In this document: positions 18,140 to 61,715 of the stretch, piece after piece
Position numbering within the stretch: the stretch's first letter is position 1
Layout of the letters: the number at the start of each line of letters is the position of its first letter
Assembly (NCBI GenBank): GCA_934162125.1
Contig: CAKPHU010000005.1
Span: 64,528-128,527 of the forward strand
Source of the DNA: an uncultured Bacilli bacterium
GTDB lineage: Bacteria; Bacillota_I; Bacilli_A; RF39; UBA660
Reading direction: 5' to 3'
Length of the DNA: 64,000 bases
Position numbers and translations under genes: made by a program
Notes under the pieces: model-generated
The model's database searches: none
Told to the model about the DNA's origin: nothing
What the model saw: only the letters and a program-made list of their open reading frames with translations

Positions 18140-18436
18140 TTAGTTATTGAATGTTTGAGCAACGTCTTTATCAGTATCGATATTTCTATTAGTAACTTCA
18201 GCAATATGATTTACCATTGCGATTACTTTATCATAGAATACTTGATAATTCTTTCTTAGCTCTTCATAACGTCCATTTGAAACGTCTGCTCCAGAACTTT
18301 GCCAATTTTCTCCAAATAATTCTGTCATGCTTCTATCAACGTTATTAAATATTTCTAACATATCGTTAGCATCTGATTGAATAGTTGTTGCTAAAGAATA
18401 TGCTTGTTCATAATCTTTCTCTTCAAATTCGTTCAT
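18140..18436 (-). CDS. WXG100/ESAT-6-like small helical protein (paralog of 44274-44570)
   Basis: 98 aa, helix-turn-helix sized, with ENWQSSGA near the centre. Alignable to the 44274 ORF. Confidence 0.55.
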   Translation of the reverse strand: MNEFEEKDYEQAYSLATTIQSDANDMLEIFNNVDRSMTELFGENWQSSGADVSNGRYEELRKNYQVFYDKVIAMVNHIAEVTNRNIDTDKDVAQTFNN

Positions 18437-18446
18437 ACTTTACCTC

Positions 18447-18749
18447 CTAATCAAATAAATTTTGAGCACGAACTGTTGATTCTTGTTCATTTTCATCAAA
18501 TCTTTGTGCACCACTCATTATTTTTTCACCAAATTCGTTTAATAATTCTTTAAACTCATTTAAGTTTTGAACTTGATTATCTACTTGAGTACTGAATTCA
18601 GTAGCAGCTGGTCCTCTCCAAATTTCCATTAAACTTTCTTTATGAGATTTTAAATCAGTTATTTTGCCATTAAATTCTTCTGCATCTCTTACTGTTGAAT
18701 TTCCATTGTCATACATATCATTAGTATTAACTTTTAAACCGTTTTGCAT
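18447..18749 (-). CDS. WXG100 family protein (EsxA-like; paralog of 44570-44878)
   Basis: 100 aa with the canonical central motif EIWRGPAATEF (W-x-G...A..F). Confidence 0.7.
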   Translation of the reverse strand: MQNGLKVNTNDMYDNGNSTVRDAEEFNGKITDLKSHKESLMEIWRGPAATEFSTQVDNQVQNLNEFKELLNEFGEKIMSGAQRFDENEQESTVRAQNLFD

Positions 18750-18825
18750 AATTAACCTCCTATCATTAATTACATTTTAGCATAGTATTTTTTTTAATTA
18801 AAGTTTTTTAACGTTTGTTTACATA

Positions 18826-19746
18826 TTATTCGCCAACAAAATAAGTTTTCCATAAGTATTGAGCATCTTTAACTGTTGGAGCGTTATTAATTAAGTCTTT
18901 TACTAGTAGAGCTTGTGAATTTGTATAGCCAGATCCTTCAGTCATTTCAGCAATGGCAAAGTCCATTTGAACATCTACATTACTTGGATCAAGACCTTTT
19001 TCCTCTGCAAATTTAAATAGATTTGCTTTTCTTTCATCGTTCCATTTAAAGATTCCGTATCCATTACCATTTTCAGCAATTGTGGAAGTAACATTAGTAC
19101 CATCTTTAGCTTCATTGATAATACCTTTGATAGCTTGATCTGTGAAACCATTTTCTCCGAACTTATTAGTAATATTAGATTCAACTGTACTATCAATTGT
19201 AGTGTCTGTTCCAATTGGAGTTGTAACTTCTCCTGGATCGTCAGCATCATCTTCTGGTTCTGGTGTTGTATCTGGTTCAGAATAATCAGAGCCTCCAGCG
19301 TCTCCTCCAGAGTAACTTCCTCCAGATGATCCACCATAGCTACCACCTGAAGAACCACTATAACCACCGCTTGAGCTATCATAATAACCATCTGATGTAG
19401 CAGTACTATCAGCATTTACACCATCTGTTGCTTCTGTCTCTAGAGCAGTTTCTGCTTCGCTGATATAATCTTCGAATTTAAATACCATTGAACTTTGTAA
19501 GTCTTCTTGGGTATTCATTACATCAGTTATAAAACTAGATGCAGCTTTTACTTTTTGACCAGCCATAGAAATGTTATTTGCTATAGCTTGAGCAGCACCT
19601 CTGAAATTAAATTCAGCACTATCGATTGCATTAGCAGCTACAGAAGTAGCTAGTTCATCAAATTGACTAGAAAGGCTTTCTAATCCAGTTACTGCCTCTG
19701 TTAATTTTTGTGAATCCGTTTTAAAAATATTTCCCAACAATGACAT
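18826..19746 (-). CDS. Modular effector-like protein: WXG/LXG-type helical N-domain, Gly/Ser-rich linker, and a C-terminal phage-tail-lysozyme-like (Phage_lysozyme2-type) cell-wall hydrolase domain
   Basis: 306 aa. Helical N-terminus, then (GGYSGSSGGSYGGSSGG) low complexity, then a C-terminus GIFKWNDERKANLFKFAEEKG...MDFAIAEMTEGSGY resembling the GLFQWN-type lysozyme domain. Confidence 0.55.
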   Translation of the reverse strand: MSLLGNIFKTDSQKLTEAVTGLESLSSQFDELATSVAANAIDSAEFNFRGAAQAIANNISMAGQKVKAASSFITDVMNTQEDLQSSMVFKFEDYISEAETALETEATDGVNADSTATSDGYYDSSSGGYSGSSGGSYGGSSGGSYSGGDAGGSDYSEPDTTPEPEDDADDPGEVTTPIGTDTTIDSTVESNITNKFGENGFTDQAIKGIINEAKDGTNVTSTIAENGNGYGIFKWNDERKANLFKFAEEKGLDPSNVDVQMDFAIAEMTEGSGYTNSQALLVKDLINNAPTVKDAQYLWKTYFVGE

Positions 19747-19768
19747 AATACTTTCCCCTTTCTATCTT

Positions 19769-20071
19769 TTAAACACCATCTATATTTGTTCCAACTTCAT
19801 TATCCGTTTTAGCATATTCGGTAGCCGTATCTTTTAAATAATTTGAGAAGTTAGTTAAATCAGCAACATCTTCTAGAATTCCACCAATATCTTCTTGCCA
19901 TGCTTCTACTAGGCTATCAGCTGCTTTTCCTGATAATAGATTATTGTTATAAATATTACTTAACTCTGTATTTGCATTTTGAAGCATAGTATTTAATTTT
20001 TCTTTACTAGATTCAATTGTACTTGCTCCCTTATCAAAAAGAGAATAATCTTTTGCTTCGAAATCAGTCAT
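19769..20071 (-). CDS. LXG/WXG-like small helical protein. Homologous to the N-terminal domain of the 46199-47008 protein.
   Basis: 100 aa. NLLSGKAADSLVEAWQ aligns with VFMGPVAEECVNLI of 46199-47008, an (L/F)xG motif. Confidence 0.5.
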   Translation of the reverse strand: MTDFEAKDYSLFDKGASTIESSKEKLNTMLQNANTELSNIYNNNLLSGKAADSLVEAWQEDIGGILEDVADLTNFSNYLKDTATEYAKTDNEVGTNIDGV

Positions 20072-20081
20072 CTTATCACCT

Positions 20082-20369
20082 CTATATTCTTTTGGCAGCT
20101 AATGCTTTATCTGCTTCCTCGATTTTATCTGCTAGTTTGTTTAAATAAATAGACATAGCTTCGATTTTCAAAATTTTATCTTTTAATTGTGCATCTTTTT
20201 CAGTGTAAGAATTACTAAATGCTTCTTTGGCGATTCCATTCCAATCTGATGTATCGGCTGTTAATTCTGTTTTTCCTGCGTCTAAGTCAGCTTTAGCTTG
20301 GCGTGCTAGAGTATCTAATTGTTTTGCAGCTTGTCTTACTTCGTCAAAATGACATTCTATAACTGACAT
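20082..20369 (-). CDS. WXG100 family protein (paralog of 44966-45253)
   Basis: 95 aa. SDWNGIAKEAF canonical WxG motif. Good SD (GTGAGGG) upstream. First gene of cassette A. Confidence 0.7.
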   Translation of the reverse strand: MSVIECHFDEVRQAAKQLDTLARQAKADLDAGKTELTADTSDWNGIAKEAFSNSYTEKDAQLKDKILKIEAMSIYLNKLADKIEEADKALAAKRI

Positions 20370-20483: not shown

Positions 20484-20514
20484 TAAAAAAAGGCTCTTTA
20501 AAAGCCTTTTTTGT
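20484..20514 (-). terminator. Rho-independent terminator (bidirectional hairpin AAAGGCT-ctttaaa-AGCCTTT with flanking A and T runs)
   Basis: Perfect 7-bp stem at 20489-20510 overlapping the stop of the 20498-21478 gene. The U-run is on the minus strand. It separates that gene from cassette A. Confidence 0.5.
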
Positions 20515-37865: not shown

Positions 37866-37875
37866 AAGAAGCTCC

Positions 37876-40189: not shown

Positions 40190-40290
40190 TTGTTATTTAA
40201 TATACACAATTGTTTAAGTTTTGTAAAGATATAAAATAACATTTGTTATTTATTATATAAAGAAACACATTAATGTTTAAAAAATATAAA

Positions 40291-40320
40291 AGAAAAAAAG
40301 AGCTTTGATTGCTCTTTTAT
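40291..40320 (-). terminator. Rho-independent terminator (AAAGAGC-tttgatt-GCTCTTT plus U-run)
   Basis: Immediately downstream of the 40333-40869 gene. On the minus strand the stem is followed by UUUUUUUCUUUU. Confidence 0.5.
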
Positions 40321-40332
40321 TGTGACTTTATT

Positions 40333-40869
40333 TTATTTACAAGTATAGCCTTGATTACTTAATTCTTTTTTTGCAGCATCGTAAGTATCAGCAGAAGTAA
40401 ATTTATCTGATTTAACATCAGCATCTACTGTAATAACGTTGCCATCAACAGATACTTTTGGATTTATTACATAATCTTCATCTTCTACTGTTTCAACAAC
40501 TGATTCTTTAGCAGCTTCAATTTCTTCACTTGTATAACTACTTGGAACTTCGTATTGTACACGCATTGAGGCACTTGAAGCTTTGTTATTTTTAAATTTA
40601 ATTGTAATTGACGCTGTTGTTTTTACTCCAAAATAAGATTGCGAATTAGTACATGTTAATGTTTTTGTGTTGAAAAATAACATGTATGCTGCACCTAATC
40701 CAATAACAACTATTATAGCAATTATAATTGGTATAATAGGTTTGTTTTTTGCTTTTTCATTTGTATCAGTTGGAACTGGAGTTGGCATAGCACCAGGTTG
40801 TGTAGTAGGTACAGGATTGTTGAATTGTTGTTGGTTATTTTGACCGTTTTCAAAGTTACCATTATTCAT
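40333..40869 (-). CDS. Membrane-anchored protein with a Gln/Asn/Pro-rich N-terminus and an extracytoplasmic domain, hypothetical
   Basis: 178 aa with a single TM helix (IIPIIIAIIVVIGLGAAYMLFF). Confidence 0.4.
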   Translation of the reverse strand: MNNGNFENGQNNQQQFNNPVPTTQPGAMPTPVPTDTNEKAKNKPIIPIIIAIIVVIGLGAAYMLFFNTKTLTCTNSQSYFGVKTTASITIKFKNNKASSASMRVQYEVPSSYTSEEIEAAKESVVETVEDEDYVINPKVSVDGNVITVDADVKSDKFTSADTYDAAKKELSNQGYTCK

Positions 40870-40937
40870 ATTTTCACTTCCTATTCTACAATGTAAAGTC
40901 TATCAAATATATTAAGATGTGTCAAACAAATATACTT

Positions 40938-41483
40938 TTAATCCATTATAATTAGTTCATGATTTAAGTACGGCATTAATTTATTTAATAAGTCTTCTGT
41001 TTTAATACGCACTGTTGCGGTATTTTCATTAGGATGAAATCTAAAATATTTTTTAGTAATTAAAGTTTTATCAATATAGACTGCTATAAGATTATCTTTA
41101 TCATAAGCCAGTTCCATAATACTAACGGCACCTTTATGAGTTCTTAATATCTCGTTAAGATTGTTTTCTGTTGCAAGATTGATTCTAGGAACACCATATT
41201 TTAAACGAAAAACCTTTTCATCAAACATTTTGTCTCGTGGCAAAATAATAAAGAAAAAATGTTTTTTATTTTTGGTACGAAATACTAAATTTTTGATTCC
41301 AGGAACATCTATCTTTTTATCAATCAACAACTGTTCTTCTAAAGTTTCAGGATAATAATTGTATTCTACTCTTTCATAATCTATATGAAGTTCATCTAGA
41401 ATATCATAGCACTCTTTTTCTTTACTTGATGTTATCTTCTTTGGGCGACCTTTTATTAACTCAGTTATTTCAAATGTTGGCAT
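40938..41483 (-). CDS. YbaK/ProX-like aminoacyl-tRNA deacylase-domain protein (tentative)
   Basis: 181 aa. Resembles prolyl-tRNA-synthetase-associated (ProX) domain proteins, for example HFFFIILPRDKMFDEKVF. Assignment from memory. Confidence 0.4.
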   Translation of the reverse strand: MPTFEITELIKGRPKKITSSKEKECYDILDELHIDYERVEYNYYPETLEEQLLIDKKIDVPGIKNLVFRTKNKKHFFFIILPRDKMFDEKVFRLKYGVPRINLATENNLNEILRTHKGAVSIMELAYDKDNLIAVYIDKTLITKKYFRFHPNENTATVRIKTEDLLNKLMPYLNHELIIMD

Positions 41484-41501
41484 ATTGATTCTCTTTTCTT
41501 A

Positions 41502-41984
41502 TTAAAGTTTTTTAATATCTATATACATTCTGGCATGATAGTCTTTTTTCTCATAGAATTTTATGGCGTTTTCGTTGTAGGCAAAGACATCAACCATAGA
41601 GTACTCACAACCTTTACTTTTGAAGTACTCTTCCATTTTCTCCATAAGTTGTTGGCCTACACCTTTGCTTCTTATTTTACTACTAACTATTAATTCGGTA
41701 ACCTTGCCTCTTTTTGGGCATTTGTAATCTAAGTAGTCATATTCATCATAGGGAGGAATTGTTCCCATTATAAGTCCAATCACCTTATCATCTTCTAAGG
41801 CTAGAAAACATTTACCATCTTGTTCTGATACTTCTTTTAAATCCAGTAGAGCCTTTTTTTCATGATATTCTGGGTGGACATGATCGAGGTTATCTTTATC
41901 AATAGATACAATGTATTCTTCTAATTCAACTAATAAATCTCTAACATCTTCTAAATATTTATCATTATATTCTATTATTTTCAT
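41502..41984 (-). CDS. GNAT family N-acetyltransferase
   Basis: 160 aa. Acetyl-CoA binding motif RSKGVGQQLM. Confidence 0.7.
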   Translation of the reverse strand: MKIIEYNDKYLEDVRDLLVELEEYIVSIDKDNLDHVHPEYHEKKALLDLKEVSEQDGKCFLALEDDKVIGLIMGTIPPYDEYDYLDYKCPKRGKVTELIVSSKIRSKGVGQQLMEKMEEYFKSKGCEYSMVDVFAYNENAIKFYEKKDYHARMYIDIKKL

Positions 41985-41997
41985 ACTACTCTCCTGC

Positions 41998-42594
41998 TTA
42001 TTTTTTGATATCTATATATGGTTTGTATATTTCTGCGTACTTTTCTAAGCATTCTTTGACATCAAACCAGTAGACATTAGTTAATATTCCATCACTTGGA
42101 TCTATTTCTGTTCTTTCAAGGACACCACCTAAGGCTTTAAGTGTTTTATCAGATCCTAAATTATTAACGTCACAGTCTAACATTACACGTTTTAGTCCTA
42201 ATTTTTGAGCTTCAACTAGACCTAAATACAAATTTATTTTATTATAGCCTTTTCTTCTTTCTGTTGGTCTGATCGCATAGCCAATATGGCCACCAAATTG
42301 TTGCATACTTAAAGATAAGTTCCATCTAACATTAATCATGCCAACTACTTTATTGTCATTTTTCCTAATAAGAAGAAAGGTTTTGGCTGGACATCTATTT
42401 ATTTTTTTTGCATACTCTTCATTTTCTGTATTTAAACATCTTTCAAGAGCTTTTTCAAAAGACATATCAGTCAACACCTTATCTAAGGAACCAGAACCAT
42501 TTATGTCTGAATTGTATTCTACAAACTCGTTAAAATATTCTAATATGTCTTTTTTTCTTTCAAGTGATGGTCTTTCCAAATAAAACTTTTCCAT
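41998..42594 (-). CDS. GNAT family N-acetyltransferase (RimJ/RimL-like)
   Basis: 198 aa. RRKGYNKINLYLGL motif and a RimL-like length. Confidence 0.65.
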   Translation of the reverse strand: MEKFYLERPSLERKKDILEYFNEFVEYNSDINGSGSLDKVLTDMSFEKALERCLNTENEEYAKKINRCPAKTFLLIRKNDNKVVGMINVRWNLSLSMQQFGGHIGYAIRPTERRKGYNKINLYLGLVEAQKLGLKRVMLDCDVNNLGSDKTLKALGGVLERTEIDPSDGILTNVYWFDVKECLEKYAEIYKPYIDIKK

Positions 42595-42610
42595 ATATAT
42601 TCTCCTTTGA

Positions 42611-43027
42611 TTATTTTTTAATCCACAAATACATACCTGTTATCTTATCAGGTTTATATTTAAATCCGGCTTTTTGATAAAACCCTTCATTTCCTGCTGT
42701 TGGAGTTAATTCAATTTGCATTTTTTCTCCTGGTTTTACATTTGATTCAATCATTCCTTTTAATTTATTAACAATCATCAAGCCATAGCCTTTTCCTTGA
42801 TATTCTGGTCTTACACAAATGTCTGATAGACAACAAACTATACTGAAGTCACCCACAACACGACCTATTCCTACTGCTTTACCATCTACCATAACTTTTA
42901 CCATGTACATGGTGTTTTTTAGAGCTTTCTCAACTTGTTCTTTTGAATAACTTTTAAATCCTACAGACTCTATTACGTCTAAGAATTCTTCAATACTAAT
43001 ATTTTCTTCTAATATTACTTCACTCAT
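42611..43027 (-). CDS. GNAT family N-acetyltransferase
   Basis: 138 aa. QGKGYGLMIV motif. Confidence 0.7.
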   Translation of the reverse strand: MSEVILEENISIEEFLDVIESVGFKSYSKEQVEKALKNTMYMVKVMVDGKAVGIGRVVGDFSIVCCLSDICVRPEYQGKGYGLMIVNKLKGMIESNVKPGEKMQIELTPTAGNEGFYQKAGFKYKPDKITGMYLWIKK

Positions 43028-43078
43028 TTTCTTACTCCTATTTTTAACAACTTGTTTTAACTTGCTTTTATGATAATT

Positions 43079-44152
43079 TTATTTTAATATTTCAGTATTT
43101 ATAAAAATTCTTTTGTTATCATAGTCGATAGTTGCTTCGGCATCATAAGGTAGAAGACATCTTGGGACAGAATGTCCAAAATTTACGTTATATAAAATTG
43201 GCGTCTCTAAGTCTGAAAAAACCTTTTTATATACTTCTTTATATTCTTCATAATATTTTTCATCTATAGGTTTACCAACGATAAGTCCTTGAACTAAATT
43301 GAAAATATTTCTCTTTTTTAATTCCAAAAGCATTTTTTCAAGTTCCTTAGGAGTGGCAGCTACTTCACTAGTTTCTAAGAATAATATTTTTTCTTTCCAT
43401 TCATCTTCTGTTGGGAATATTTGATATTTTTCATACACTGATGCTTGATCTGCAAATCTTGTTCCCATAAATGATTCATATATACTTTCTACGCATCCTC
43501 CATATAGTTTTCCAGTTGCTGTTCCTTGACCATTTAAAGTTTCAAAACCATGTATTTCTTGATGAGATTCTCTTGGTATTCCAATCTCTTCTGGTCCATA
43601 ACTTTTTCTATCACTATACCAAACTGGGCTTGATTTTATTTCATAAGATTTTCCACCTGTAAAAAATTTTTCAAATTGGTCTTTAGTGTAAGGCAACATT
43701 TCATTATCTAACTCTGCTATATCAACTAATAAGCATGGTCCATAAAATGTAGATAGACCTATTTTATTTAACATTAAATGATTATTTGTAGTGTCAGAAA
43801 AGCCGGTGAAAATTTTAGGGTTGTTTTTAACAGCTTCAATAAACTCTGGATCATCCATTAGATAAGGTATTGTTTTATAAGTATCAATGCCACCTATTGC
43901 GGTTATGATAGCTTTTATACTAGGATCCATAAAAGCATCCTTTAAATCACTTGCTCTAGCTTCTGGGTGTTCTTCAATGTACTTCATATCTTTTAAAGCA
44001 TTAGGCATTATTACTGGTTCTAATCCATATTCTTTTAGTCTATCTAAAGCAATAGACAATTCATGTTTACAAAATGGCATTCCTAAAAGTCCTCTTGATA
44101 GACTAACGATAGCTATTTTGTCTCCCTTTTTCAATCTTTGTGGTTTTAACAT
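43079..44152 (-). CDS. S66 family serine peptidase (LD-carboxypeptidase / MccF-like)
   Basis: 357 aa. N-terminal LKKGDKIAIVSLS and the TGFSDTT Ser-nucleophile motif. Its size fits MccF-like rather than short LdcA. Confidence 0.7.
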   Translation of the reverse strand: MLKPQRLKKGDKIAIVSLSRGLLGMPFCKHELSIALDRLKEYGLEPVIMPNALKDMKYIEEHPEARASDLKDAFMDPSIKAIITAIGGIDTYKTIPYLMDDPEFIEAVKNNPKIFTGFSDTTNNHLMLNKIGLSTFYGPCLLVDIAELDNEMLPYTKDQFEKFFTGGKSYEIKSSPVWYSDRKSYGPEEIGIPRESHQEIHGFETLNGQGTATGKLYGGCVESIYESFMGTRFADQASVYEKYQIFPTEDEWKEKILFLETSEVAATPKELEKMLLELKKRNIFNLVQGLIVGKPIDEKYYEEYKEVYKKVFSDLETPILYNVNFGHSVPRCLLPYDAEATIDYDNKRIFINTEILK

Positions 44153-44273: not shown

Positions 44274-44570
44274 TTAGTTATCTATTTCAACAGCATTAGT
44301 AGCAGCAGCATCAGCAGCTTCATAAGTATTAGCAGCTTCATTGATTACTTTATTCATTTCTACTACTTGTTCATAGAATGCAGAGTATTTTTCATGAAAT
44401 TGTCTCATATAATCTGATTCAATATCACGAGCACCAATACTATTCCAGTGATCTGAAAATAAACCGTTCATAACTATATCTTCATTATCAAATACTTCTT
44501 TGATTTGATTTGCTAAATTTAAAATTTCATTTGCACTACTACGTGCTTGTTCATAATTATCTATTTGCAT
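44274..44570 (-). CDS. WXG100/ESAT-6-like small helical protein (paralog of 18140-18436)
   Basis: 98 aa with DHWNSIGA. Its SD is embedded in the end of the upstream gene. Last gene of cassette B. Confidence 0.55.
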   Translation of the reverse strand: MQIDNYEQARSSANEILNLANQIKEVFDNEDIVMNGLFSDHWNSIGARDIESDYMRQFHEKYSAFYEQVVEMNKVINEAANTYEAADAAATNAVEIDN

Positions 44571-44878
44571 TAAAAACCAATCCTTCCTGCACTACTTGCT
44601 ACGTCATTTTCAGCCTCTTCTAAGATGTTAGCTGCCCTTCCTAAACCTTCACCTAAATTAGCAACTTGCTCATTAAATGTATTTAACAATACAGCAAGAT
44701 CTTCATATGCAGCCATAAATTTTTCTCTACCACCACCAGATTTCCAGTTAGAGCCTAATTCATCAACTTTTGCTTTTAATGATGATAATTTTTCACGAAA
44801 TTCTTCTGAGTTTTCAATTGTTTCTCTACTGTTGCGGTTCATACCACCAAAATCAACTTGTAAACCATTTGTATTCAT
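44570..44878 (-). CDS. WXG100-like protein (paralog of 18447-18749)
   Basis: SNWKSGGG central motif. Start placed at MNTNGLQ (44878), preceded by an AGGAGG SD. The ORF-track start at 44905 appears to be a TTG. Confidence 0.6.
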   Translation of the reverse strand: MNTNGLQVDFGGMNRNSRETIENSEEFREKLSSLKAKVDELGSNWKSGGGREKFMAAYEDLAVLLNTFNEQVANLGEGLGRAANILEEAENDVASSAGRIGF

Positions 44879-44965
44879 TAATAAATACCTCCTACTTATT
44901 TTCAATATATCGTTTAATTGTTTACTTGTATATATTTTATATTAAAATGTTACATAATTTTACAT

Positions 44966-45253
44966 CTAAATACTTAAACTTGCTAACTGATTTTCTAAAT
45001 CTTGGATACTTTTAGCAGATGATTTGATAAATTCACCAACTTCACTCATTTTTTCTGCTTTTGCAGTAGCTAGTTCAACTTGACTTGTACATTGAGCAGT
45101 AAAATTATTTTTAGCTTTTCCACTCCAAGCCGAAAGATCGCTTGTAACATTAGTATCATAATTTTGAATAGCTGTTTTTATATTGTTGGCAGCTGAACAT
45201 AACTTTTCTCCTGCTGCTATTACTTCAGCAAAATCACATACATATTTGGCCAT
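44966..45253 (-). CDS. WXG100 family protein (paralog of 20082-20369)
   Basis: 95 aa. SAWSGKAKNNF canonical WxG motif. AAAGGAG SD. Confidence 0.7.
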   Translation of the reverse strand: MAKYVCDFAEVIAAGEKLCSAANNIKTAIQNYDTNVTSDLSAWSGKAKNNFTAQCTSQVELATAKAEKMSEVGEFIKSSAKSIQDLENQLASLSI

Positions 45254-45267
45254 TGATAAACTCCTTT

Positions 45268-46188
45268 CTATATTTCGACTGTTTCATTTCCTGAACTTTG
45301 ATTATCAGTTGAGCTAGCTAAATTAGTTAATATAGTACTTTCATTTACTATTTTGTTAGCATTAAGGTCAAATTGTCCATTATTTGTAACAGTATATTTA
45401 GTCATATCAATATTTATATTATTTTCATTTTCACTATTCCAATTTTCATTAACGATAAAACTAACATTAGATTTAGCATTGTCAGTAGTAGGCTTTTCAA
45501 AACTGATACCAACAATACACTTAACTTCTTCACCATTATTGTTTTTGAAAATAATTTCATCACCAACTGTTCCGATTGATTCATTACATAAAACTACATA
45601 GTGATCGTCAATCATGGCGTAACCATTGCCATTATAGGTAACTTTATTTATATAGTCGTTCTTTAGCGAATCATCTAATTTATCTAAATTAATACCAACA
45701 TGATTTACTTCTTCAATTTTATCTGTAATAGCATTTTCATCTTTTTCTTTGTCTTCTGGCTCTGTGTTTGTTTCATCTAATCCCGAAATAGCACTAGCTA
45801 TTCCAGCTGCTATGCCTCCTGAAATTGTACTTGATGATCCTCCAGAGTAATAACTTCCTGAATAGCCTCCGCTTGATGAACTACTACTTGAATATCCACT
45901 ACTAGCAGTTTTATTAGTTTCTGTTTTGGCTAGCGTTAATGACTTTTGAAGGGAAGTGTGAGCACTAACTACATTATCAGCATAAATAGATGTATTTTTG
46001 AATTTTGTAACACAGGCTTCAACATTTGCGATCATTTGAGCTTTAACTGATGAGAAGTCAAAACCATCTTCACAACTTGTATCATAACCACTTATCGAAT
46101 CTACAACACTTGAGATTTGATTTGCTAAAGAATTTATTGTATTAGCTCCTGATATGACAGGATCACAATCTAACATAAATACACTCAT
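45268..46188 (-). CDS. Modular effector-like protein: WXG/LXG-type helical N-domain, Ser/Gly-rich linker, and a C-terminal beta-rich domain of unknown function
   Basis: 306 aa. Same architecture as 18826-19746, but the C-terminal domain (NGYAMIDDHYVVLCNESIGTVGDEIIFKNNNGEEVKCIVG...) has no motif I recognise. Confidence 0.5.
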   Translation of the reverse strand: MSVFMLDCDPVISGANTINSLANQISSVVDSISGYDTSCEDGFDFSSVKAQMIANVEACVTKFKNTSIYADNVVSAHTSLQKSLTLAKTETNKTASSGYSSSSSSSGGYSGSYYSGGSSSTISGGIAAGIASAISGLDETNTEPEDKEKDENAITDKIEEVNHVGINLDKLDDSLKNDYINKVTYNGNGYAMIDDHYVVLCNESIGTVGDEIIFKNNNGEEVKCIVGISFEKPTTDNAKSNVSFIVNENWNSENENNINIDMTKYTVTNNGQFDLNANKIVNESTILTNLASSTDNQSSGNETVEI

Positions 46189-46198
46189 ATATTATCTC

Positions 46199-47008
46199 CT
46201 ATTTTGGGTCCCATTGATCAAGACCATATTGTTCAACAATACTAATTAAATTTTCACTATAGGTTTGACTTGTTGCATAACCGCATTGTTTAACAGCGAC
46301 GCAAGCCTCCTTATAATTAGTAGCCTCTAAAACAGGCTTGTATCTGTCTTTAGTTAACAGTTCAGCATGATCAATAATAGAATCATTTACTGAATCATAA
46401 TCTCTGAAATCAGCACGTGTTTGATATCTAGTACCATCAGCATTTTGTTCTCCAGTTAAACAATTTACTCTTTTGCCAGTCCAACTACTACCAGCTTTAA
46501 TACCAAAAATATTGTTACCAATTCTTGATCTACCCCAACCTGTTTCTAGTATTGCTTGAGCAAGTGTTAAAGAAGGTAAAACTCCATATTTATTATAGGT
46601 TTCTATGGCACCAGCTTTGATTTCATTTACAAAGTCTAATCTGTAACCTGATAAGTTACCTGGATTTTTATAATCACTGTTGATTGCTGTTTGACTAACT
46701 CCATTAAGTTTTAATTGAACTGCTTGATTTGCTTCACTATCAGCATTTTTGTATGTTGCGGAAGCTGTAGTAAGAAAGTCTGCTATAGTTTTGAAATTTT
46801 CACCAATAGTATTTAGAGATGTATCCAATTCATTAATTAAATTAACACATTCTTCTGCTACTGGTCCCATGAAAACACTTTCGTTGCTAAGTTTGGTTAA
46901 GGAATCATTTAGGCTGGTATTACATTCAGTTACTTTGGAATTTGTTAAAGTAGTAGTAGATATTGCATTATTGAAAATGCCATAATCTGTAATTGAAACT
47001 TTATCCAT
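46199..47008 (-). CDS. LXG/WXG-like helical N-domain fused to a GH73 N-acetylglucosaminidase (FlgJ/mannosyl-glycoprotein endo-beta-N-acetylglucosaminidase-type) domain
   Basis: 269 aa. The N-terminus aligns with the 19769-20071 protein. The C-terminus carries LPSLTLAQAILETGWGRS, the GH73 consensus around the catalytic Glu. Confidence 0.7.
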   Translation of the reverse strand: MDKVSITDYGIFNNAISTTTLTNSKVTECNTSLNDSLTKLSNESVFMGPVAEECVNLINELDTSLNTIGENFKTIADFLTTASATYKNADSEANQAVQLKLNGVSQTAINSDYKNPGNLSGYRLDFVNEIKAGAIETYNKYGVLPSLTLAQAILETGWGRSRIGNNIFGIKAGSSWTGKRVNCLTGEQNADGTRYQTRADFRDYDSVNDSIIDHAELLTKDRYKPVLEATNYKEACVAVKQCGYATSQTYSENLISIVEQYGLDQWDPK

Positions 47009-47019
47009 TCTATCACTCC

Positions 47020-47916
47020 TTATTTATTTCCTTCATATCTTAAGTAACCATCCCATCCACTGCTATAAAATGGAACAACGTTTATTTCTTTACCAGTTGA
47101 ATCACCATCTTGGCCGTCTCTATCACCATGGGCTCCAATCATTTGTCCATCGCCTATATACATTTCGGTATGAGAATTTTCATCTAATAAAACGTCACCT
47201 GGTAATAGGTCTTCTGCTCTTGGTGTACCTGGATACCATGTAAATCCACATTGAGTAAATGATCTTTTCATATTTCCTGTGAATCCTGCTCCGGCTTCTT
47301 TAACCGGGATACCCGCATTTTCATAAGCATTGATGACAAAAGATGAACAGTCATAATTTGGATTACCATTTCTTGTCTTTTGTGAGTAACCGTGTGTGTC
47401 GTCATTGGCAATGTCAAAGGCCCAATTGATAGCATTTTGAATATATGGAGAACTCGATCTTATTGCATAAGAATTAGAACCAGATGTGCTTGTGGTACTA
47501 TCTCCATTGATACTAACAGTGGCTAATTTAACAGAGGCAGCACTCTGTAGTTGACTTTCAATTTGAGTTTTTAAAGTTTCCATTTCCGACTCGTAGCTAT
47601 TCATTTCAGAAAGATAACTACGGGCTGAACTTGTATTATTAGCAGCGTATGCAGTATTGTAGTTACTCTTAGCAATATTATATTTTGGTTTTAGTTCTTT
47701 ATATTTGGCATATAAATCACAGGCAGATGCAAAAGCTGTGAACTGAGTTTTTAAGCTACTTGCATATTCTGAACTAAAATCATTTGCTTTAGATGAAAAG
47801 TTATTATATGAGTTACCTTTCCATGATGAAGCAAGCTCATTTACGCAATTAGAATAATTTGTTATAGCTGAAGTAATACTACTTAAATCAGAATTAACTT
47901 GACTTCCACTTACCAT
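47020..47916 (-). CDS. WXG100-domain N-terminus fused to an NlpC/P60 cysteine peptidase domain
   Basis: N-terminal LASSWKGNSYNNF (W-x-G). C-terminal NYDCSSFVINAY...NSHTEMYIG (NlpC/P60 Cys and His). Start placed at the second ATG (47916), preceded by GGAGG. The ORF-track start is 47928. Confidence 0.7.
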   Translation of the reverse strand: MVSGSQVNSDLSSITSAITNYSNCVNELASSWKGNSYNNFSSKANDFSSEYASSLKTQFTAFASACDLYAKYKELKPKYNIAKSNYNTAYAANNTSSARSYLSEMNSYESEMETLKTQIESQLQSAASVKLATVSINGDSTTSTSGSNSYAIRSSSPYIQNAINWAFDIANDDTHGYSQKTRNGNPNYDCSSFVINAYENAGIPVKEAGAGFTGNMKRSFTQCGFTWYPGTPRAEDLLPGDVLLDENSHTEMYIGDGQMIGAHGDRDGQDGDSTGKEINVVPFYSSGWDGYLRYEGNK

Positions 47917-48059
47917 ATTTACCTCCATTTATTTTATCTTAATATTATTTTATCATTATAAATAAAGGAAAAACAATTTTATTTGTGAAAAGACAAGATG
48001 TTTACATTTTTTAGGACATAGTGCTTTCTCTATTATAAATTATTTTTGTTTTAAATATG

Positions 48060-48098
48060 AAAATAGAGCATTTTGTATGGATGCTCTATTTATTTTTA
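48060..48098. terminator. Bidirectional hairpin (ATAGAGCAT-N9-ATGCTCTAT) with flanking A and T runs
   Basis: 9-bp perfect stem at 48063-48089 followed by TTATTTTTA. Lies in the 420-bp AT-rich spacer between the LRR gene and cassette B. Confidence 0.4.
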
Positions 48099-48252
48099 TC
48101 TTTATTTTAATTTTTGTAGAGATTAGGCGATTATGCACTTAAAGATGCTTAAGCATTTTGTTTTTTATATACTTCTTGCACATATAATTTTTGATATATA
48201 TTATACTAATTTTTATTGTTTTTAACAATTGATTTGGTTGAATGTGACTAAA

Positions 48253-48296
48253 TAGTAAAAAAAAGAAAAGTCAACATACTATAATGAATTGACTTT
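48253..48296 (-). terminator. Rho-independent terminator for the pilin-LRR operon (AAAGTCAA-N14-TTGACTTT plus a U8 run on the minus strand)
   Basis: About 50 nt downstream of the LRR gene stop (48348). On the minus strand the stem is followed by UCUUUUUUUU. Confidence 0.5.
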
Positions 48297-48347
48297 CCTT
48301 ATAATTATATTTTTAACGCATTAAAGTTAAATTTTTTTGCTATGATG

Positions 48348-49748
48348 TTACTCTTTAACAACTTCAATATCTCCATACCAGTTTTCGACGGTTCCATAAT
48401 CAAAATTAGCTTCTGATGGCCCTCCTGTTATTGATTTCCAGTCGAATTTTCTACCTGTTTTATTTACTATTTTTGTTAGAGAAGAATTGTAATTGTCATA
48501 AGTAATTTCTTTTCTAAAAGCATCCGTTCCTATACTTGTTACTGTTGAAGGAATGGTTAATGACCTTAGTTTGCAATTTCTGAAAGCATTATTCCCAATT
48601 TTTATCAATCCTTCAGGTAAAGTTACAGCTTTGATATTACTATAATAAAATGCTGAGTTAGAGATTGTTTTTACTTTTTCTGGAATTATTACATTGTCAG
48701 TTCCATATGCAGCATAACCTATTATATTTGTGTAATCAATTTTGCCATTGTTGTCTCTAGCATAAACGAAGCCAGGTACTAAATTACCATCACCATTGTC
48801 TACATATGTAACATAATTTAGCATAAAAGCGTTAGTTCCTATACTTGTTACTGTTGAAGGAATTTTTAACGTGCCAGTAAAATAGCTTACACCCAAAGCT
48901 CCACTGGCAATTGTTTTTAGTTTTACACCGTTTTTTTCTGCCGGAATAGTTACATCTTTCTTTTTAGCTCCAGCATAACCTACTAATGTACTATAATCTA
49001 TGCCGCTTGTAGTTCTTTTATATATCCATGCCTGACTATCATCTTGAACAGCATTTGTATTGAATGCTTGCCCTCCTAGTATTACTACGCTTTGAGGAAT
49101 TTTTAATTCTTTTATTTTGTTACTATAAAATGCACTACCGCCAATACTTATTACTCCGTTCGGAATATTTACTTTTGAAATACCATCAAAAGCAAAAGCA
49201 CTACTTTGAATATCAATAACAGTATCAGGTATTACAACTTCCCAGTCACTTAAAGACATTCGTTGAAAAGCTCCTGATTCAATAACTTTTAATTTCACAC
49301 CATTTATTTCTCCTGGTATTCTAAATACTTTATCTGGAAATTCTGATAAATCACCAATGTAACCTCTTATTCTAGTATAATCATACGAATCACCTTTTTT
49401 AACATATAAAAATGATGGGTTTGGGATTGGGTTGTTACAGTACGCGCACGCTCCTAGAGAAGTTACTGAATCGGGTATTATGGCTTCTGTCAATTGATTA
49501 TATTGAAATGCCGATGCTCCTATCGTTTTTATTCCTTCATCGTATGTTAAATCTTTTATTTTGTTATTAGCGAAAGCCCAGATTTTTATCTCTATTACAC
49601 TTGATGGAATATGTAGACTTTTAATGTTATTATTTTTAAATGATTCATTACCGATTTTTTTTATTGTGTCTGGGATATAAACACTAGTTATTCCCATGTT
49701 TCTAAATGTATAATTGTGAATAGAAGTCACTTCTCTATCACCTATCAT
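48348..49748 (-). CDS. BspA-type leucine-rich repeat (LRR_5) protein
   Basis: 466 aa made of repeated units of the type IP(D/S)(S/T)V(T/I)SIG..AF..N..(K/T). No N-terminal signal peptide. Its ATG overlaps the TGA of the upstream pilin gene (ATGA). Confidence 0.7.
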   Translation of the reverse strand: MIGDREVTSIHNYTFRNMGITSVYIPDTIKKIGNESFKNNNIKSLHIPSSVIEIKIWAFANNKIKDLTYDEGIKTIGASAFQYNQLTEAIIPDSVTSLGACAYCNNPIPNPSFLYVKKGDSYDYTRIRGYIGDLSEFPDKVFRIPGEINGVKLKVIESGAFQRMSLSDWEVVIPDTVIDIQSSAFAFDGISKVNIPNGVISIGGSAFYSNKIKELKIPQSVVILGGQAFNTNAVQDDSQAWIYKRTTSGIDYSTLVGYAGAKKKDVTIPAEKNGVKLKTIASGALGVSYFTGTLKIPSTVTSIGTNAFMLNYVTYVDNGDGNLVPGFVYARDNNGKIDYTNIIGYAAYGTDNVIIPEKVKTISNSAFYYSNIKAVTLPEGLIKIGNNAFRNCKLRSLTIPSTVTSIGTDAFRKEITYDNYNSSLTKIVNKTGRKFDWKSITGGPSEANFDYGTVENWYGDIEVVKE

Positions 49749-50377
49749 ACCTGGTATTGTAACATCTGTTCCACACTTTTTTTATAGTATGTAAGTTCTG
49801 CTTCCGAATCAGATAAATTTTTAAAACTAAAACATTTCTTAGCTTCTTCTTCGGTTAAACTGTGTCTAGCAGGAAGTATTTCAGTAACGCCATCTTTATT
49901 CATTACAGATATTATGTTCTTGCCTTTTATTGGTTGCCTATTATTTACGTACTTTCTGCCGAGATGAACATCTTGGGCAGTTATTGTTTTAGATGATTTT
50001 AAGTTTATTTTCCAACCAGTTTGATCACAACTTACCCAATAATAATCATTGGTACCATCTTTATTTAGTGTTATTACAACATATGCATCTAACCAGTCTG
50101 AAAAAGGGCTTTTTGTTATGTCACTATTATCATTTAACAAATTGTTTATATGAATATAATAGGTCGTATCATAATCATCAATTTTAAGTGTTTCATTTGT
50201 AACCATTGCATTAGCAGTGCTTACAAAACTAAGTGCATCTTGAACATATACTTTTGCCTTAGATTTATTAATAATACTACTTACAGATGGAATTGCTATT
50301 GCCATTAAAATTCCCATTATTACTATGACTGCTAGTAACTCTACTAGCGTAAAACCTTTTTTATTACTATACCACAT
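49745..50377 (-). CDS. Type IV pilin / pseudopilin-like protein with a class III (prepilin peptidase) signal
   Basis: MWYSNKKG|FTLVELLAVIVIMGILMAIAIP is the canonical prepilin leader, with G-F cleavage and methylation of F and Glu+5. 210 aa. Confidence 0.75.
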   Translation of the reverse strand: MWYSNKKGFTLVELLAVIVIMGILMAIAIPSVSSIINKSKAKVYVQDALSFVSTANAMVTNETLKIDDYDTTYYIHINNLLNDNSDITKSPFSDWLDAYVVITLNKDGTNDYYWVSCDQTGWKINLKSSKTITAQDVHLGRKYVNNRQPIKGKNIISVMNKDGVTEILPARHSLTEEEAKKCFSFKNLSDSEAELTYYKKSVEQMLQYQV

Positions 50378-50528: not shown

Positions 50529-52748
50529 ATGAATAGTAAAGAGAAGAAAGAAAATAATTATTTTAAATATTTAGATTTTATTAGAGTATTTGCTTGTATT
50601 GCAATACTTCTATATCATTTTGGTATATTGAAGGGTGGCTATTTGGCAGTATGTACTTTTTTTGTTCTTAGTGGCTTTTTATCTACCAATTCATTATTTA
50701 GTAAAGAAAAGATATCTTTAAAGGAATATTATCTTAATAAATTCTTTAGACTTTATTTACCATTAATAGTAGTTGTTTTTATTTCTATTGCGGCAACTTT
50801 TATTCTTAATAAGACATGGTTTAATTTGAAACCCGAAAGTACTTCGATTATACTGGGGTATAACAATTATTGGCAATTATCTTCAAATAATGATTATTTT
50901 GCAGGAACGCTTAATTCTCCTTTTATTCATTTATGGTATATTGCAATTTTACTTCAGTTTGATTTGATTTTTCCTTTTATATTTATGCTTTTTAAAAAAA
51001 TAGGTGATAAATTTAATAAGGTTATTCCAACAATTCTTCTTTCTATTATTACTCTTGCTAGTACTATTTATTTTTGGATTAGTGGAAATAATAATAGTTT
51101 AATGTTTACTTATTATAATACTTTAACAAGAGTATTTTCCTTGTTATTTGGTGTTCTAATTTGTTTTATTTACCATTACTATGGAGATATGATATTTAAG
51201 GAGTTAAAGAAAAATGTTCTTAGTAAAATTATTTTTTATTTATATATTCTAATTTTAACTGGACTATTTGTTTTTGTTGATTCTAATAGCAGTTTTATGT
51301 TTATTAGTATGATTTTAACTACTTTGATTTCTACAAGAATTATCTTATATAGTACTTTAATTAATAATAATTTACCTATTTTTGATAAAGTGATTAAATC
51401 TTTATCTAGTGTTAGTTATGAAGTTTATTTAGTTCAATACCCTATTATTTATTTATTTTTAAATTCTTCTATTAATATTTATCTTAAGTATGGGATTATG
51501 CTTATTTTAATTATTAGTATATCTTATTTATTACATTTCTGTATTTTTTCTCGTAAAAGTAAATGTAAGATTATTAGATATATTCTTTGTTTTATTATTT
51601 TGATTGCTGCTTCATATGGCGTTTATGTTTACTGTTTAAGTGAAGACTATACTGATGAAATGAATGCTTTAAGAGAACAAATGAATAGTAATCAGAAGCT
51701 GATGTCTAATCATAAAGAATCTTATTTATCAAATAAGAAAAAAGAAAATGATGATTGGAATGCTACACTTGAAGAACTTGACAACAATAAAAATAATCTT
51801 GGTAATGTTGTTACTAATTTACCGGTTGTTGGTATTGGGGATTCCGTTCTTCTCGGAGCAATTCCTAATTTATATAATGCTTTTCCTAATGGCTATTTTG
51901 ATGGAAAAGTTTCTAGAACAGCTTATGAAGCTAATCGTATTTTACTTGATTTAAAGAACAAAGGTGCTCTTGGTAATCCTATTGTATTTAATCTTGGTAC
52001 TAATGGAGATTGTCCATATGAGTGTAAGGTGGAGATTTTAAATACTTGTGGTGATAGAGATATCTTTTGGGTTAATACCGTTAATTATACTTATGTTAAT
52101 GATAGGCTTGCTAGCTTAGCAAATGAATTTCCTAACTTGCATATTATTGATTGGAATTCTATTTCTAAGGGTCATAGTGAGTATTTTGCTTATGATGGTG
52201 TACATCTTACTAGTACAGGTAGAGATGTTTTTACCAAAGCTATTTATGATAGTATTTATAATTTATATCTTGATAGATACAATAAGGAGAAAGATGAAAT
52301 TATTAATAAACATAATGATGATGTTATGAAAAAAGTTACTTTTTATGGTAATGACCTTCTTATTAATTTATTTGAAAATATTAAAGATGATTTTAGTGAT
52401 AGTAATTTTATTACTTTTAACGATGTTTCCTATGATGTTTTAATAAATAATCTTAAAAAAGATATTAACGATAATAATATTAATCATAAACTTGTTTTTC
52501 TTTTTGATAATAGTCTTGAACTAAATACTCTTGAATACGAGAATTTAATTAATCTATGTAAGGACTATGATATTTATATTGTTTCTTTAAATAAAGATAT
52601 TAATTCTAATTCTATTAAGGGTGATAATGTTAAAGTTATTGATTTTTATAAAGAAGAAAAAACGGTAATGATGCCTGATAACATTCATTTGAATGATAAT
52701 GGTAATAAGACTTTGGCCTCTATTCTTAAAGATACTGTTTATAATTAG
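50529..52748 (+). CDS. Acyltransferase-3 (OatA-like) membrane domain fused to an SGNH/GDSL hydrolase domain and a long C-terminal extension
   Basis: 739 aa. About 10 TM helices in the N-terminal 370 aa and VVGIGDSVLLGA (GDS motif) in the SGNH domain. Confidence 0.7.
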   Translation: MNSKEKKENNYFKYLDFIRVFACIAILLYHFGILKGGYLAVCTFFVLSGFLSTNSLFSKEKISLKEYYLNKFFRLYLPLIVVVFISIAATFILNKTWFNLKPESTSIILGYNNYWQLSSNNDYFAGTLNSPFIHLWYIAILLQFDLIFPFIFMLFKKIGDKFNKVIPTILLSIITLASTIYFWISGNNNSLMFTYYNTLTRVFSLLFGVLICFIYHYYGDMIFKELKKNVLSKIIFYLYILILTGLFVFVDSNSSFMFISMILTTLISTRIILYSTLINNNLPIFDKVIKSLSSVSYEVYLVQYPIIYLFLNSSINIYLKYGIMLILIISISYLLHFCIFSRKSKCKIIRYILCFIILIAASYGVYVYCLSEDYTDEMNALREQMNSNQKLMSNHKESYLSNKKKENDDWNATLEELDNNKNNLGNVVTNLPVVGIGDSVLLGAIPNLYNAFPNGYFDGKVSRTAYEANRILLDLKNKGALGNPIVFNLGTNGDCPYECKVEILNTCGDRDIFWVNTVNYTYVNDRLASLANEFPNLHIIDWNSISKGHSEYFAYDGVHLTSTGRDVFTKAIYDSIYNLYLDRYNKEKDEIINKHNDDVMKKVTFYGNDLLINLFENIKDDFSDSNFITFNDVSYDVLINNLKKDINDNNINHKLVFLFDNSLELNTLEYENLINLCKDYDIYIVSLNKDINSNSIKGDNVKVIDFYKEEKTVMMPDNIHLNDNGNKTLASILKDTVYN

Positions 52749-61591: not shown

Positions 61592-61715
61592 GAATACTAA
61601 CAAAAATTGTTAGCATTCATACTACTAATTATTATTTTCTTCCAATTATTCCATAATATCTTCTGATTAATTTGATACCTTTTTCAGTAGTGTTTTGTTC
61701 AACATATTTTTCAAA
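61592..61715 (-). repeat. About 125-bp repeat, copy 2 (terminator hairpin GAATACTAACA-N6-TGTTAGCATTC plus the 3' end of the methyltransferase gene)
   Basis: See copy 1. The hairpin has an 11-bp stem with one mismatch. Confidence 0.8.

Follow-up and report, generated by a model that had tools for sequence, protein, structure and literature searches.

Peptidoglycan enzymes without export signals, encoded with WXG100-type proteins in uncultured Bacilli, as probable substrates of a type VII secretion system

Introduction

How can peptidoglycan enzymes reach the cell wall when they are made without any export signal? The question is raised by cassette B, a run of six genes (B1-B6) in a 64,000-nucleotide stretch of DNA from an uncultured Bacilli bacterium (contig CAKPHU010000005.1; the whole stretch is called the window here). 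By hydropathy (19-residue Kyte-Doolittle), no cassette B protein has a signal peptide or a membrane segment (maximum 1.19, none reaching 1.6), so its peptidoglycan enzymes need a route to their substrate other than Sec. The answer that we think probable is that cassette B and its paralogue in the same window, cassette A, are substrate operons of an EssC-driven system of the T7SSb kind (type VII secretion system b), with the ATPase encoded elsewhere in the genome.

The evidence comes from the domains of the six proteins, from the conservation of the cassette in related genomes, and from the genes for EssC found in relatives. A preliminary description of this DNA, made from its letters alone, had pointed to the cassette, and its claims are taken up where the results bear on them.

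Results

Layout of cassette B

Cassette B consists of six co-directional open reading frames (ORFs) on the minus strand, at 44274-47916 (Table 1). The intergenic gaps are 11, 10, 14 and about 87 nt, and B5 and B6 overlap by 1 nt, the start of B6 overlapping the stop codon of B5. The GC content of the cassette is the same as that of its surroundings. All six ORFs lie tightly packed as the preliminary description placed them, and every motif that it quoted is present (SSWKGNSYNNF, FMG, ISG, SAWSGKAKNNF, SNWKSGGG and DHWNSIGA), while two of its start positions had to be changed. The start of B1 was moved from 47928 to the second ATG at 47916 (MVSG..., 298 aa), because the GGAGG serving as Shine-Dalgarno sequence falls within the first ATG, gene callers pick the second ATG and homologues begin with MVSSG. 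The start of B5 was moved from a TTG at 44905 to 44878 (102 aa).

The intergenic region upstream of B1 was read for regulatory features. A hairpin at 48061-48091 probably terminates the upstream gene for a leucine-rich-repeat (LRR) protein. A consensus scan returned sigma-70-like promoters at 48061-48032 and 48004-47976, which are candidates only, as the counts are not above shuffled expectation. No Rfam match to a riboswitch or leader RNA was found upstream of the cassette.

B1 and B2 join helical N-terminal domains to peptidoglycan enzymes

B1 belongs to the NlpC/P60 (C40) family by its hidden Markov model scores and conserved Cys and His residues. The Pfam matches are ELLD (E 3.1e-13, 50.4 bits; cutoff 27) and NLPC_P60 (E 7.2e-6, 26.4 bits; cutoff 23), and in 54 homologues C190, H249 and H263 are nearly invariant. 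In the AlphaFold 2 (AF2) model (mean predicted local distance difference test score, pLDDT, 86), the N-terminal domain is a bundle of three helices (4-30, 35-91 and 95-128) with a WKG turn at 32-34, and a disordered linker (133-154) leads into the cysteine peptidase domain. W32 and G34 of this turn are invariant in the B1 family. The match of the N-terminal domain to Pfam WXG100 is partial and below the curated cutoff (E 0.038); in Foldseek the domain alone is weakly PPE-like (E 0.27-1.2), and PPE proteins are T7SS substrates. The whole model compared with the PDB gave as best match the RipA-like hydrolase Cg1735 (1.2e-4), and the endolysin Lys2972 at 1.7e-4. B1 has a maximum hydropathy of 0.46 and no N-terminal hydrophobic segment.

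The B1 fusion is widespread. A search with the full-length query returned more than 110 clusters, named "C40 family peptidase [Bacilli bacterium]" by NCBI throughout. The N-terminal domain family (B1N) also occurs free-standing, as a 155-aa protein with a faint precomputed Pfam WXG100 match, in another species whose NlpC/P60 domain is joined to a B3-type beta domain, and elsewhere B1N is fused to GH73, C39-like or CHAP-like domains.

B2 is a GH73 enzyme: its match to Pfam Glucosaminidase (E 1.4e-33, 116.6 bits; cutoff 30.2) covers profile positions 4-122 of 123, and it contains the motif AQAILETGWG, whose Glu we take to be catalytic from general knowledge of GH73. Its N-terminal domain (B2N) aligns end to end with the TIGR03930 WXG100_ESAT6 profile (residues 8-94 on positions 5-89 of 90; E 7.4e-4), below the curated cutoff, and homologues of this domain match A3, a free-standing 100-aa protein of cassette A, at E 3e-6 to 2e-4. 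Hydropathy gives no signal peptide for B2 either. In 28 blocks of the collection, contigs (23 of them read) carry the identical B2 protein sequence.

B3 carries a probable double-psi beta-barrel

In the AF2 model of B3 (mean pLDDT 79, about 95 in both folded domains), an N-terminal hairpin (helices 9-33 and 45-90, turn GYDTSCEDGFDF) is followed by a Ser/Gly linker (100-149), which is disordered, and a C-terminal beta domain. B3 has no Pfam match, and this includes WXG100 for its N-terminal domain (B3N). In a profile-profile comparison (hhalign), the B3N family matched the family of 95-aa WXG100 proteins over its full length with 71% probability.

Foldseek matches of the beta domain are weak (E 0.04-0.3), and the known wall- or sugar-binding proteins among them all have the double-psi beta-barrel (DPBB) fold; the DPBB-fold matches are expansin, kiwellin, p97-N, cerato-platanin, Pa4485 and a designed DPBB. 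From these fold comparisons the domain is probably a DPBB. The "unknown beta domain" of the preliminary description is thus indeed a beta domain, for which a DPBB is the most likely identity rather than an unknown fold. The B3 family conserves D202, D210 and D218. In the window copy the first and last are changed (D202N and D218N; Asp occurs there in 79 of 122 and 99 of 121 family members, respectively), while D210, the remaining conserved Asp, and both conserved Cys are kept. Judged from these residues, the window B3 may bind the wall without cleaving it.

The B3 family is small, with 212 representatives among 1.84 billion proteins in an exhaustive HMMER search. Among 125 family members, every Pfam domain that occurs in more than two is a cell-wall domain. 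The recurrent partners are ELLD/NlpC-P60, CHAP, Amidase_5, Peptidase_C39_2 and Amidase_6; CW_7, YkuD, Phage_lysozyme2 and Hydrolase_2 occur once each, and Pfam found no nuclease, NADase or deaminase domain in these members. The link to peptidoglycan enzymes that had been proposed from one operon thus holds across the family.

From the above, the large proteins have helical N-termini of the kind found in T7SS substrates, as had been proposed: an AF2 hairpin in B3, a three-helix WxG bundle in B1 and an end-to-end WXG100_ESAT6 alignment in B2. The label LXG, applied to some of them earlier, was dropped: Pfam LXG (PF04740) has no match to B1-B3 at E <= 1, nor to the 125 B3-family members at E <= 0.001.

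The WXG100-type trio and the paralogous cassette A

The last three genes encode small proteins with turn motifs of the expected kind, WSG in B4 and W-x-S-x-G variants in B5 (WKSGGG) and B6 (WNSIG). Against the Pfam WXG100 (PF06013) cutoff of 27.3 bits, B5 (43.5 bits) and B4 (28.6 bits) are above and B6 (24.8 bits, E 2.7e-5) is just below; against TIGR03930 (cutoff 44.85) all three match under the cutoff, the best being B5 (39.7 bits, E 4.2e-10) and B6 giving E 5e-6. By these profiles and motifs, B4, B5 and B6 are WXG100-type proteins, presumably hairpins, in agreement with the preliminary description. Orthologues of B4 are 46-55% identical in 11 of 12 genome-collection loci, and B6 has a profile similarity of 92% to K5, a small EssC-linked protein.

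Cassette A, at 18140-20369, belongs to the same system as cassette B. Its four small proteins (A2, A3, A5 and A6) all have Pfam WXG100 matches, A3 being a free-standing hairpin of the B2N type, and A4 joins a B3N-type hairpin and a Ser/Gly linker to a Phage_lysozyme2 domain (2.8e-14). The paralogue pairs are A2 and B4, A5 and B5 (2e-8), and A6 and B6 (1.4e-12), and the trios of relatives are nearer to A5 and A6 than to B5 and B6. Upstream of A2-A6 stands A1, a protein of 326 aa without a Pfam match that looks by eye like a transglutaminase-like Cys-His-Asp protease. It was considered as a further member of cassette A and set aside, its homologue being absent from the cassette of every relative.

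The cassette is conserved in uncultured Bacilli

The cassette occurs in ENA loci, and locus searches recovered it from 12 GTDB genomes and from 29 metagenome loci of JGI. The GTDB genomes are uncultured metagenome-assembled genomes (MAGs), most of which are labelled Bacilli, Bacillales, Erysipelotrichaceae or Mollicutes, with one Muribaculaceae and two without a taxon name; more than 20 of the loci are from uncultured gut and rumen Bacilli MAGs.

Generally, the gene order is one B1N fusion, then B2N fusions, then B3N fusions, then the trio, with the full cassette in 11 genome-collection loci and 7 of 9 long metagenome loci. Each cassette has 1-7 genes for hairpin-hydrolase fusions, followed by the invariant trio of 95, 98-100 and 99 aa, and a B2N-lysozyme gene sometimes stands after the trio. 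Across species the N-terminal domains act as mobile modules. In the cassettes read, more than ten, no candidate for an immunity gene was found, and every ORF is WXG-like or a hydrolase; the exception is an unexplained overlapping ORF of about 209 aa in two related loci, L010 and L013.

The usual neighbours of the cassette are wall-synthesis genes (MurJ-like flippase, FemAB and MurD), and in many species it is set among the core genes murJ-like, femAB, murD, eno and uvrB. In L004 and L006 a FemAB gene is the direct neighbour of the cassette, and in L018 one is close to it. Searches of 50,697 phage and 72,556 plasmid records gave no match to B3. In summary, three families of N-terminal targeting domains (B1N, B2N and B3N), the WXG100 trio and a probable DPBB wall domain are missed by current annotation, which gives "C40 family peptidase" or hypothetical protein.

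EssC is encoded beside the cassette in one related lineage

Among the ORFs of the window, own scans and precomputed Pfam annotation (for about 36-57 kb) gave no match to FtsK/SpoIIIE, EssB, EsaA or YukD, as the preliminary description had said; for some ORFs near 36-41 kb, 160-270 aa long, no match is on record. The largest ORFs of the window encode UvrA, UvrB, an OatA-like protein and ABC transporters.

Relatives do encode EssC. In L018 (GTDB MAG CAMNUE01) and in L053, a contig from JGI, a gene for a 1542-aa protein with FHA and FtsK_SpoIIIE domains stands within about 100-190 bp downstream of the trio. The L018 protein scores 955.5 bits against TIGR03928 EssC (cutoff 778.4), and by its domains and score the protein of these two loci is a genuine T7SSb EssC. 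More than 120 EssC relatives are found in the same kind of MAGs, some of them named "type VII secretion protein EssC [Bacilli bacterium]" by NCBI, and at least eight further loci contain the EssC module in different neighbourhoods, with no hydrolase cassette beside it. For example, L034, L037 and L038 share with the window the gene order ftsX-ftsE-yitT-yitT-prfB, and their EssC module lies 6-7 kb past prfB. FtsE is 85-87% and PrfB 68-70% identical between the window and L034 and L037, and in L037 a far anchor after the EssC module, a methyltransferase, is 77% identical to that at window 61635-62393. Tetranucleotide composition did not discriminate between sources, as known different species were as close as the same organism.

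The preliminary description had left open two options, cargo of a distant T7SSb or an undescribed export system. The first gains support from the relatives, with EssC beside the cassette in L018 and L053 and EssC modules common in the clade. The second found no footing, no cassette protein having a membrane segment with which to form a channel.

In this clade, EssC is followed by a fixed array, in which a conserved 84-aa protein comes first and then six helical proteins, small and soluble (about 104, 97, 100, 106, 101 and 154 aa), two of which are weakly WXG100-like. No EssA, EssB, EsaA or EsaB/YukD was recognised by Pfam or NCBIfam within 10 kb of EssC in the eight EssC loci of relatives whose gene tables were read; these core components could be divergent or encoded elsewhere. 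The 84-aa protein resembles YukD in position and size, but Pfam and a PDB profile search, both negative, did not bear this out. The EssC module of the clade may be a minimal or divergent variant of T7SSb; a classification of T7SSc-j has been published (PMC11217815).

In five relatives the EssC module is flanked by another conserved protein, about 350 aa long, which is membrane-anchored at its N-terminus, contains HExxH (in L034 as LHESLHFF) and matches nothing in Pfam. From these features it could be an uncharacterised T7SS-associated metalloprotease.

Surroundings of the cassette

The window, from a gut bacterium, has a GC content of 29% and is chromosomal, and ENA and Hadza metagenomes contain the same segment on contigs 135-151 kb long. 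Its housekeeping genes include gap, pgk, whiA, lgt, uvrA, uvrB, prfB, and ftsEX with an adjoining gene for a PcsB-like M23 protein. The other features are listed together with the cassettes in Table 1.

Table 1. Features of the window and of related loci, with the basis of each assignment
Feature	Coordinates	Strand	Description	Basis
B1	47020..47916	-	298 aa; three-helix WxG N-terminal domain, linker, NlpC/P60 (ELLD)	Pfam, AF2
B2	46199..47008	-	269 aa; WXG100-like hairpin (about 8-97, turn FMG), GH73 N-acetylglucosaminidase (134-262)	Pfam, TIGR03930
B3	45268..46188	-	306 aa; helical hairpin, Ser/Gly linker (100-149), beta domain (150-285)	AF2
B4	44966..45253	-	95 aa; WXG100 (SAWSGK), first of trio	Pfam 28.6 bits
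B5	44570..44878	-	102 aa; WXG100 (NWKSGGG), second of trio	Pfam 43.5 bits
B6	44274..44570	-	98 aa; WXG100-like (HWNSIGA), third of trio	Pfam 24.8 bits
Upstream region of B1	47917..48347	-	intergenic; holds GGAGG Shine-Dalgarno of B1	sequence read
Cassette A (A2-A6)	18140..20369	-	paralogous cassette	Pfam, paralogy to cassette B
A2, A3, A5, A6	within 18140-20369	-	95, 100, 100 and 98 aa	Pfam WXG100 matches for all four
A4	within 18140-20369	-	306 aa; B3N-type hairpin, Ser/Gly linker, Phage_lysozyme2	Pfam
A1	20498-21478		326 aa; upstream of A2-A6	by eye
Holin-family gene	9457-9888		in housekeeping run
ftsEX and PcsB-like M23 gene	23583-26342		PcsB-like gene adjoins ftsEX
prfB (RF-2)	30470-31513		276-aa ORF; homology runs upstream to 31513 in another frame
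Peptidase_S66, GNAT and YbaK/ProX run	37377-44152		directly downstream of cassette B
N_methyl and LRR pair	48348-50377		immediately upstream of cassette B
OatA-type protein	50529-52748	opposite to cassette B	739 aa; Acyl_transf_3, C-terminal GDSL-like
RhuM-family genes	60398-61435; 62776-63408		one full length with Bro-N, one truncated
Post-EssC array	L018 16790-19172		equivalents in L022, L029, L033-L038
EssC-flanking protein, about 350 aa	L034 17056-18108; L037 17146-18207; L035 12730-13818; L038 17151-18203; L033 17133-18167
Spo0A gene	L026 13046-13822		Response_reg, Spo0A_C; same contig as window

Directly downstream of cassette B is a run of one Peptidase_S66 gene (LD-carboxypeptidase/MccF family), three GNAT genes and two tRNA-editing genes of the YbaK/ProX type. 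MccF and MccE-type GNATs detoxify aminoacyl-nucleotide antibiotics, and this run may be a resistance cluster unrelated to cassette B. The LD-carboxypeptidase had been remarked on in the preliminary description as lying immediately downstream. The gene is there, with its Peptidase_S66 match, and is probably unrelated: it belongs to the GNAT/tRNA-editing run and stands next to the cassette only in the window species and its closest relative.

On the upstream side, a 210-aa prepilin-type (N_methyl) protein overlaps the start of a 466-aa BspA-type LRR protein. In strain L002 an ORC/CDC6-like gene takes the place of this pair, so the neighbourhood is variable. At 2.6 kb from cassette B, an ORF has the architecture of an OatA-type O-acetyltransferase.

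The frame change in prfB is consistent with the usual programmed +1 frameshift. The two RhuM-family genes near the window end stand beside the methyltransferase of the L037 synteny, which suggests a variable or mobile region. A Spo0A gene lies about 2-3 kb beyond the window start, and the organism may sporulate or descend from spore-formers.

Discussion

Export through EssC and its alternatives

In the proposed mechanism, the operon would yield an NlpC/P60 endopeptidase, a GH73 glucosaminidase and a glycan-binding or -cleaving protein of the DPBB type. B1-B3, which lack a Sec signal, would each use the WXG100-like N-terminal hairpin or three-helix bundle as a targeting domain, with which B4-B6 would pair to form helical bundles and so offer EssC a composite signal, in the way that LXG toxins are presented with their Lap or EsxBCD partners. 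Once exported, the catalytic domains would be able to reach peptidoglycan through the flexibility of their linkers (Ser/Gly or low-complexity).

Several points weigh against this mechanism. Neither EssC nor another core gene is present in the 64 kb of the window or in 10 kb beyond its start, and the window interval that matches the EssC module of three relatives holds cassette B and no EssC; a loss of EssC in the window species is possible. The cassette adjoins EssC in one lineage only (2 loci), and the EssC evidence comes from relatives. Moreover, the WXG100 matches of the N-terminal domains of B1, B2 and B3 are all below curated thresholds, and fold matches are unspecific, helical hairpins being common. 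Even so, we regard export of both cassettes' products by an EssC encoded elsewhere as the probable explanation.

T7SS export would serve another end if the enzymes were antibacterial effectors that are delivered to or released onto competing Gram-positive bacteria and cut their peptidoglycan, by analogy with the Tae/Tge effectors of T6SS (type VI secretion system) or with mycobacterial EatA, the producer protecting itself by wall chemistry (FemAB bridges, O-acetylation) and not by a dedicated immunity protein. Interbacterial antagonism is the best-characterised role of T7SSb (PMC10765036), and wall-degrading T7SS toxins as well as predicted NlpC/P60 payloads are described in Actinomycetota (PMC13444075). 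N-terminal and catalytic domains are shuffled from one species to the next, as is typical of polymorphic effectors (B1N occurs with NlpC/P60, GH73, C39-like or CHAP-like domains); a cassette has several hydrolases and the window two cassettes; FemAB is at or near the cassette in the three loci named above, and the window has its OatA-like acyltransferase close by. However, both FemAB and OatA are housekeeping genes of an ordinary kind, the set of four enzyme types is the same in most species and does not vary widely, and the payloads include no nucleases, NADases or deaminases. Nor was an immunity-like ORF seen in any of the more than ten cassettes read, whereas every T7SS or T6SS effector against the wall that has been characterised has, to our knowledge, an immunity protein. 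Toxin use is possible on this evidence, though we think it rather unlikely. As to where exported enzymes would act, the missing immunity gene, the same enzyme set across species and the housekeeping and wall-synthesis neighbourhood incline us, by a narrow balance, to the producer's own wall (remodelling, autolysis or making a passage for secretion) rather than that of competitors. A more specific proposal is that the T7SS of this clade of small-genome gut Bacilli is a pared-down machine (EssC, the 84-aa protein and soluble hairpins, without EssA, EssB or EsaA) which works mainly as a housekeeping exporter of the cell's own signal-less hydrolases on shared trio adaptors, an autolysin exporter opening its own path through the wall and not a toxin gun; we offer it as a speculation that is doubtful at present.

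The remaining explanations do without T7SS export. If EssC was lost or never present, the hydrolases could reach the wall by a holin, by lysis or by an unknown exporter, with the WXG-like domains serving oligomerisation or regulation only. The absence of EssC from the window and just beyond its start, the lack of the module in the interval where three relatives have it, and the about 20 of 22 long cassette loci without EssC within 10 kb all fit this, and a holin-family gene is present in the window. But that gene lies 35 kb from cassette B in a housekeeping run, T7SS substrates commonly have their genes at a distance from the core locus (PMC10765036), the two cassettes are each intact, selection is suggested by the B2 sequence unchanged in the 28 blocks, and without a T7SS it is difficult to explain why WxG is invariant in B1 and why the WXG100 trio is obligatory; we rate such a route as improbable. 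A docking of B1 on FtsEX by a coiled coil, as a hydrolase of the CwlO/RipC/PcsB type in a division or elongation set, would explain why the RipA-like coiled-coil protein Cg1735 is the best PDB match of the whole model, and it would suit a weak NCBIfam RipC match (E 3.9e-5) and the ftsEX and PcsB-like M23 genes of the window. Yet that RipC score is 23.2 bits against a cutoff of 425, CwlO, RipC and PcsB have signal peptides and B1 has none, the PcsB-like partner already stands beside ftsEX, and B1, with its invariant WxG, is found together with WXG100 genes and, in L018, with EssC, which leaves FtsEX docking very improbable. Least credible of all, to the point that we give it almost no weight, is the idea that the cassette was left behind by a prophage or a conjugative element, lysins having been captured with element-encoded WXG100 proteins. 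The catalytic families are indeed typical of phage lysins (Phage_lysozyme2, ELLD, Amidase_5 and CW_7), and a phage endolysin and a phage baseplate protein are among the Foldseek matches of B1, but neither the phage nor the plasmid records contain B3, no integrase, capsid, terminase or relaxase gene is near the cassette, and the cassette sits among core genes in many species with a GC content like that of its surroundings.

If EssC-driven export is correct, the cassette bears on a question that reviews of T7SSb leave open, namely by what means substrates get through the thick walls of producer and target (PMC10765036, PMC13492133). Here a single operon, widespread and conserved, couples at least three peptidoglycan enzymes to targeting domains of the T7SS type, free of immunity genes, in bacteria in whose EssC modules a wall-spanning EsaA is not recognisable. 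The question of wall crossing becomes newly testable: a T7SS may be the exporter of its own wall-openers or autolysins, or else immunity-free wall hydrolases may serve Gram-positive gut bacteria as weapons.

Comparison with known systems

Among the nearest known systems are the LXG toxins of T7SSb with their Lap or WXG100-like partners (TelA with LapA3/A4, EsaD with EsxBCD; PMC10801868, PMC9600955). In both, a large substrate has an N-terminal helical targeting domain and no Sec signal, two or three small WXG100-like hairpin proteins are co-encoded, and there is a linkage to EssC, here in relatives. However, the N-terminal domains of the cassette are hairpins of WXG100 size (B2 and B3) or a 130-aa three-helix WxG bundle (B1), and its partners are a downstream trio common to 3-7 substrates, whereas LXG toxins have toxin-specific upstream pairs. 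Unlike LXG toxin loci, the cassette has several substrates per operon, payloads that are peptidoglycan enzymes only, and no immunity gene.

EatA of Mycobacterium abscessus is a T7SS-exported cell-wall glycosidase with the WXG-like partners TapA1 and TapA2 (PMC13444075). The EatA-TapA1/TapA2-EatI system shares with the cassette a wall glycoside hydrolase on a helical N-terminal domain and WXG-like partners, and NlpC/P60 domains are predicted in EatA-like loci; it differs in being an ESX-4 system of Actinomycetota with a lipoprotein immunity protein (EatI), an arabinan target and one toxin per locus (PMC13444075). In Staphylococcus aureus, EssH is a secreted CHAP peptidoglycan hydrolase that associates with the T7SSb core and is needed for the machine and its substrates to pass the wall (PMC13059805), and a similar role is one plausible role of B1-B3. 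The papers on EssH describe no WXG-type N-terminal domain, and we assume that EssH is exported without the help of a WXG tag; EssH also helps to assemble EsaA (PMC13059805), which was not recognised beside the EssC of relatives.

Two further groups of enzymes show partial likeness. Hydrolases of the CwlO/RipC/PcsB type have an N-terminal helical coiled coil followed by NlpC/P60 or CHAP, and B1 superposes on Cg1735, but they have signal peptides (Sec/Tat) and no WxG motif and are not co-encoded with WXG100 proteins. The Tae (NlpC/P60-type amidases) and Tge (glycoside hydrolases) effectors of T6SS are signal-less too, often with several per genome; they differ from the cassette enzymes in belonging to a Gram-negative secretion system and in being, as far as is known, always accompanied by periplasmic immunity proteins (Tai and Tgi).

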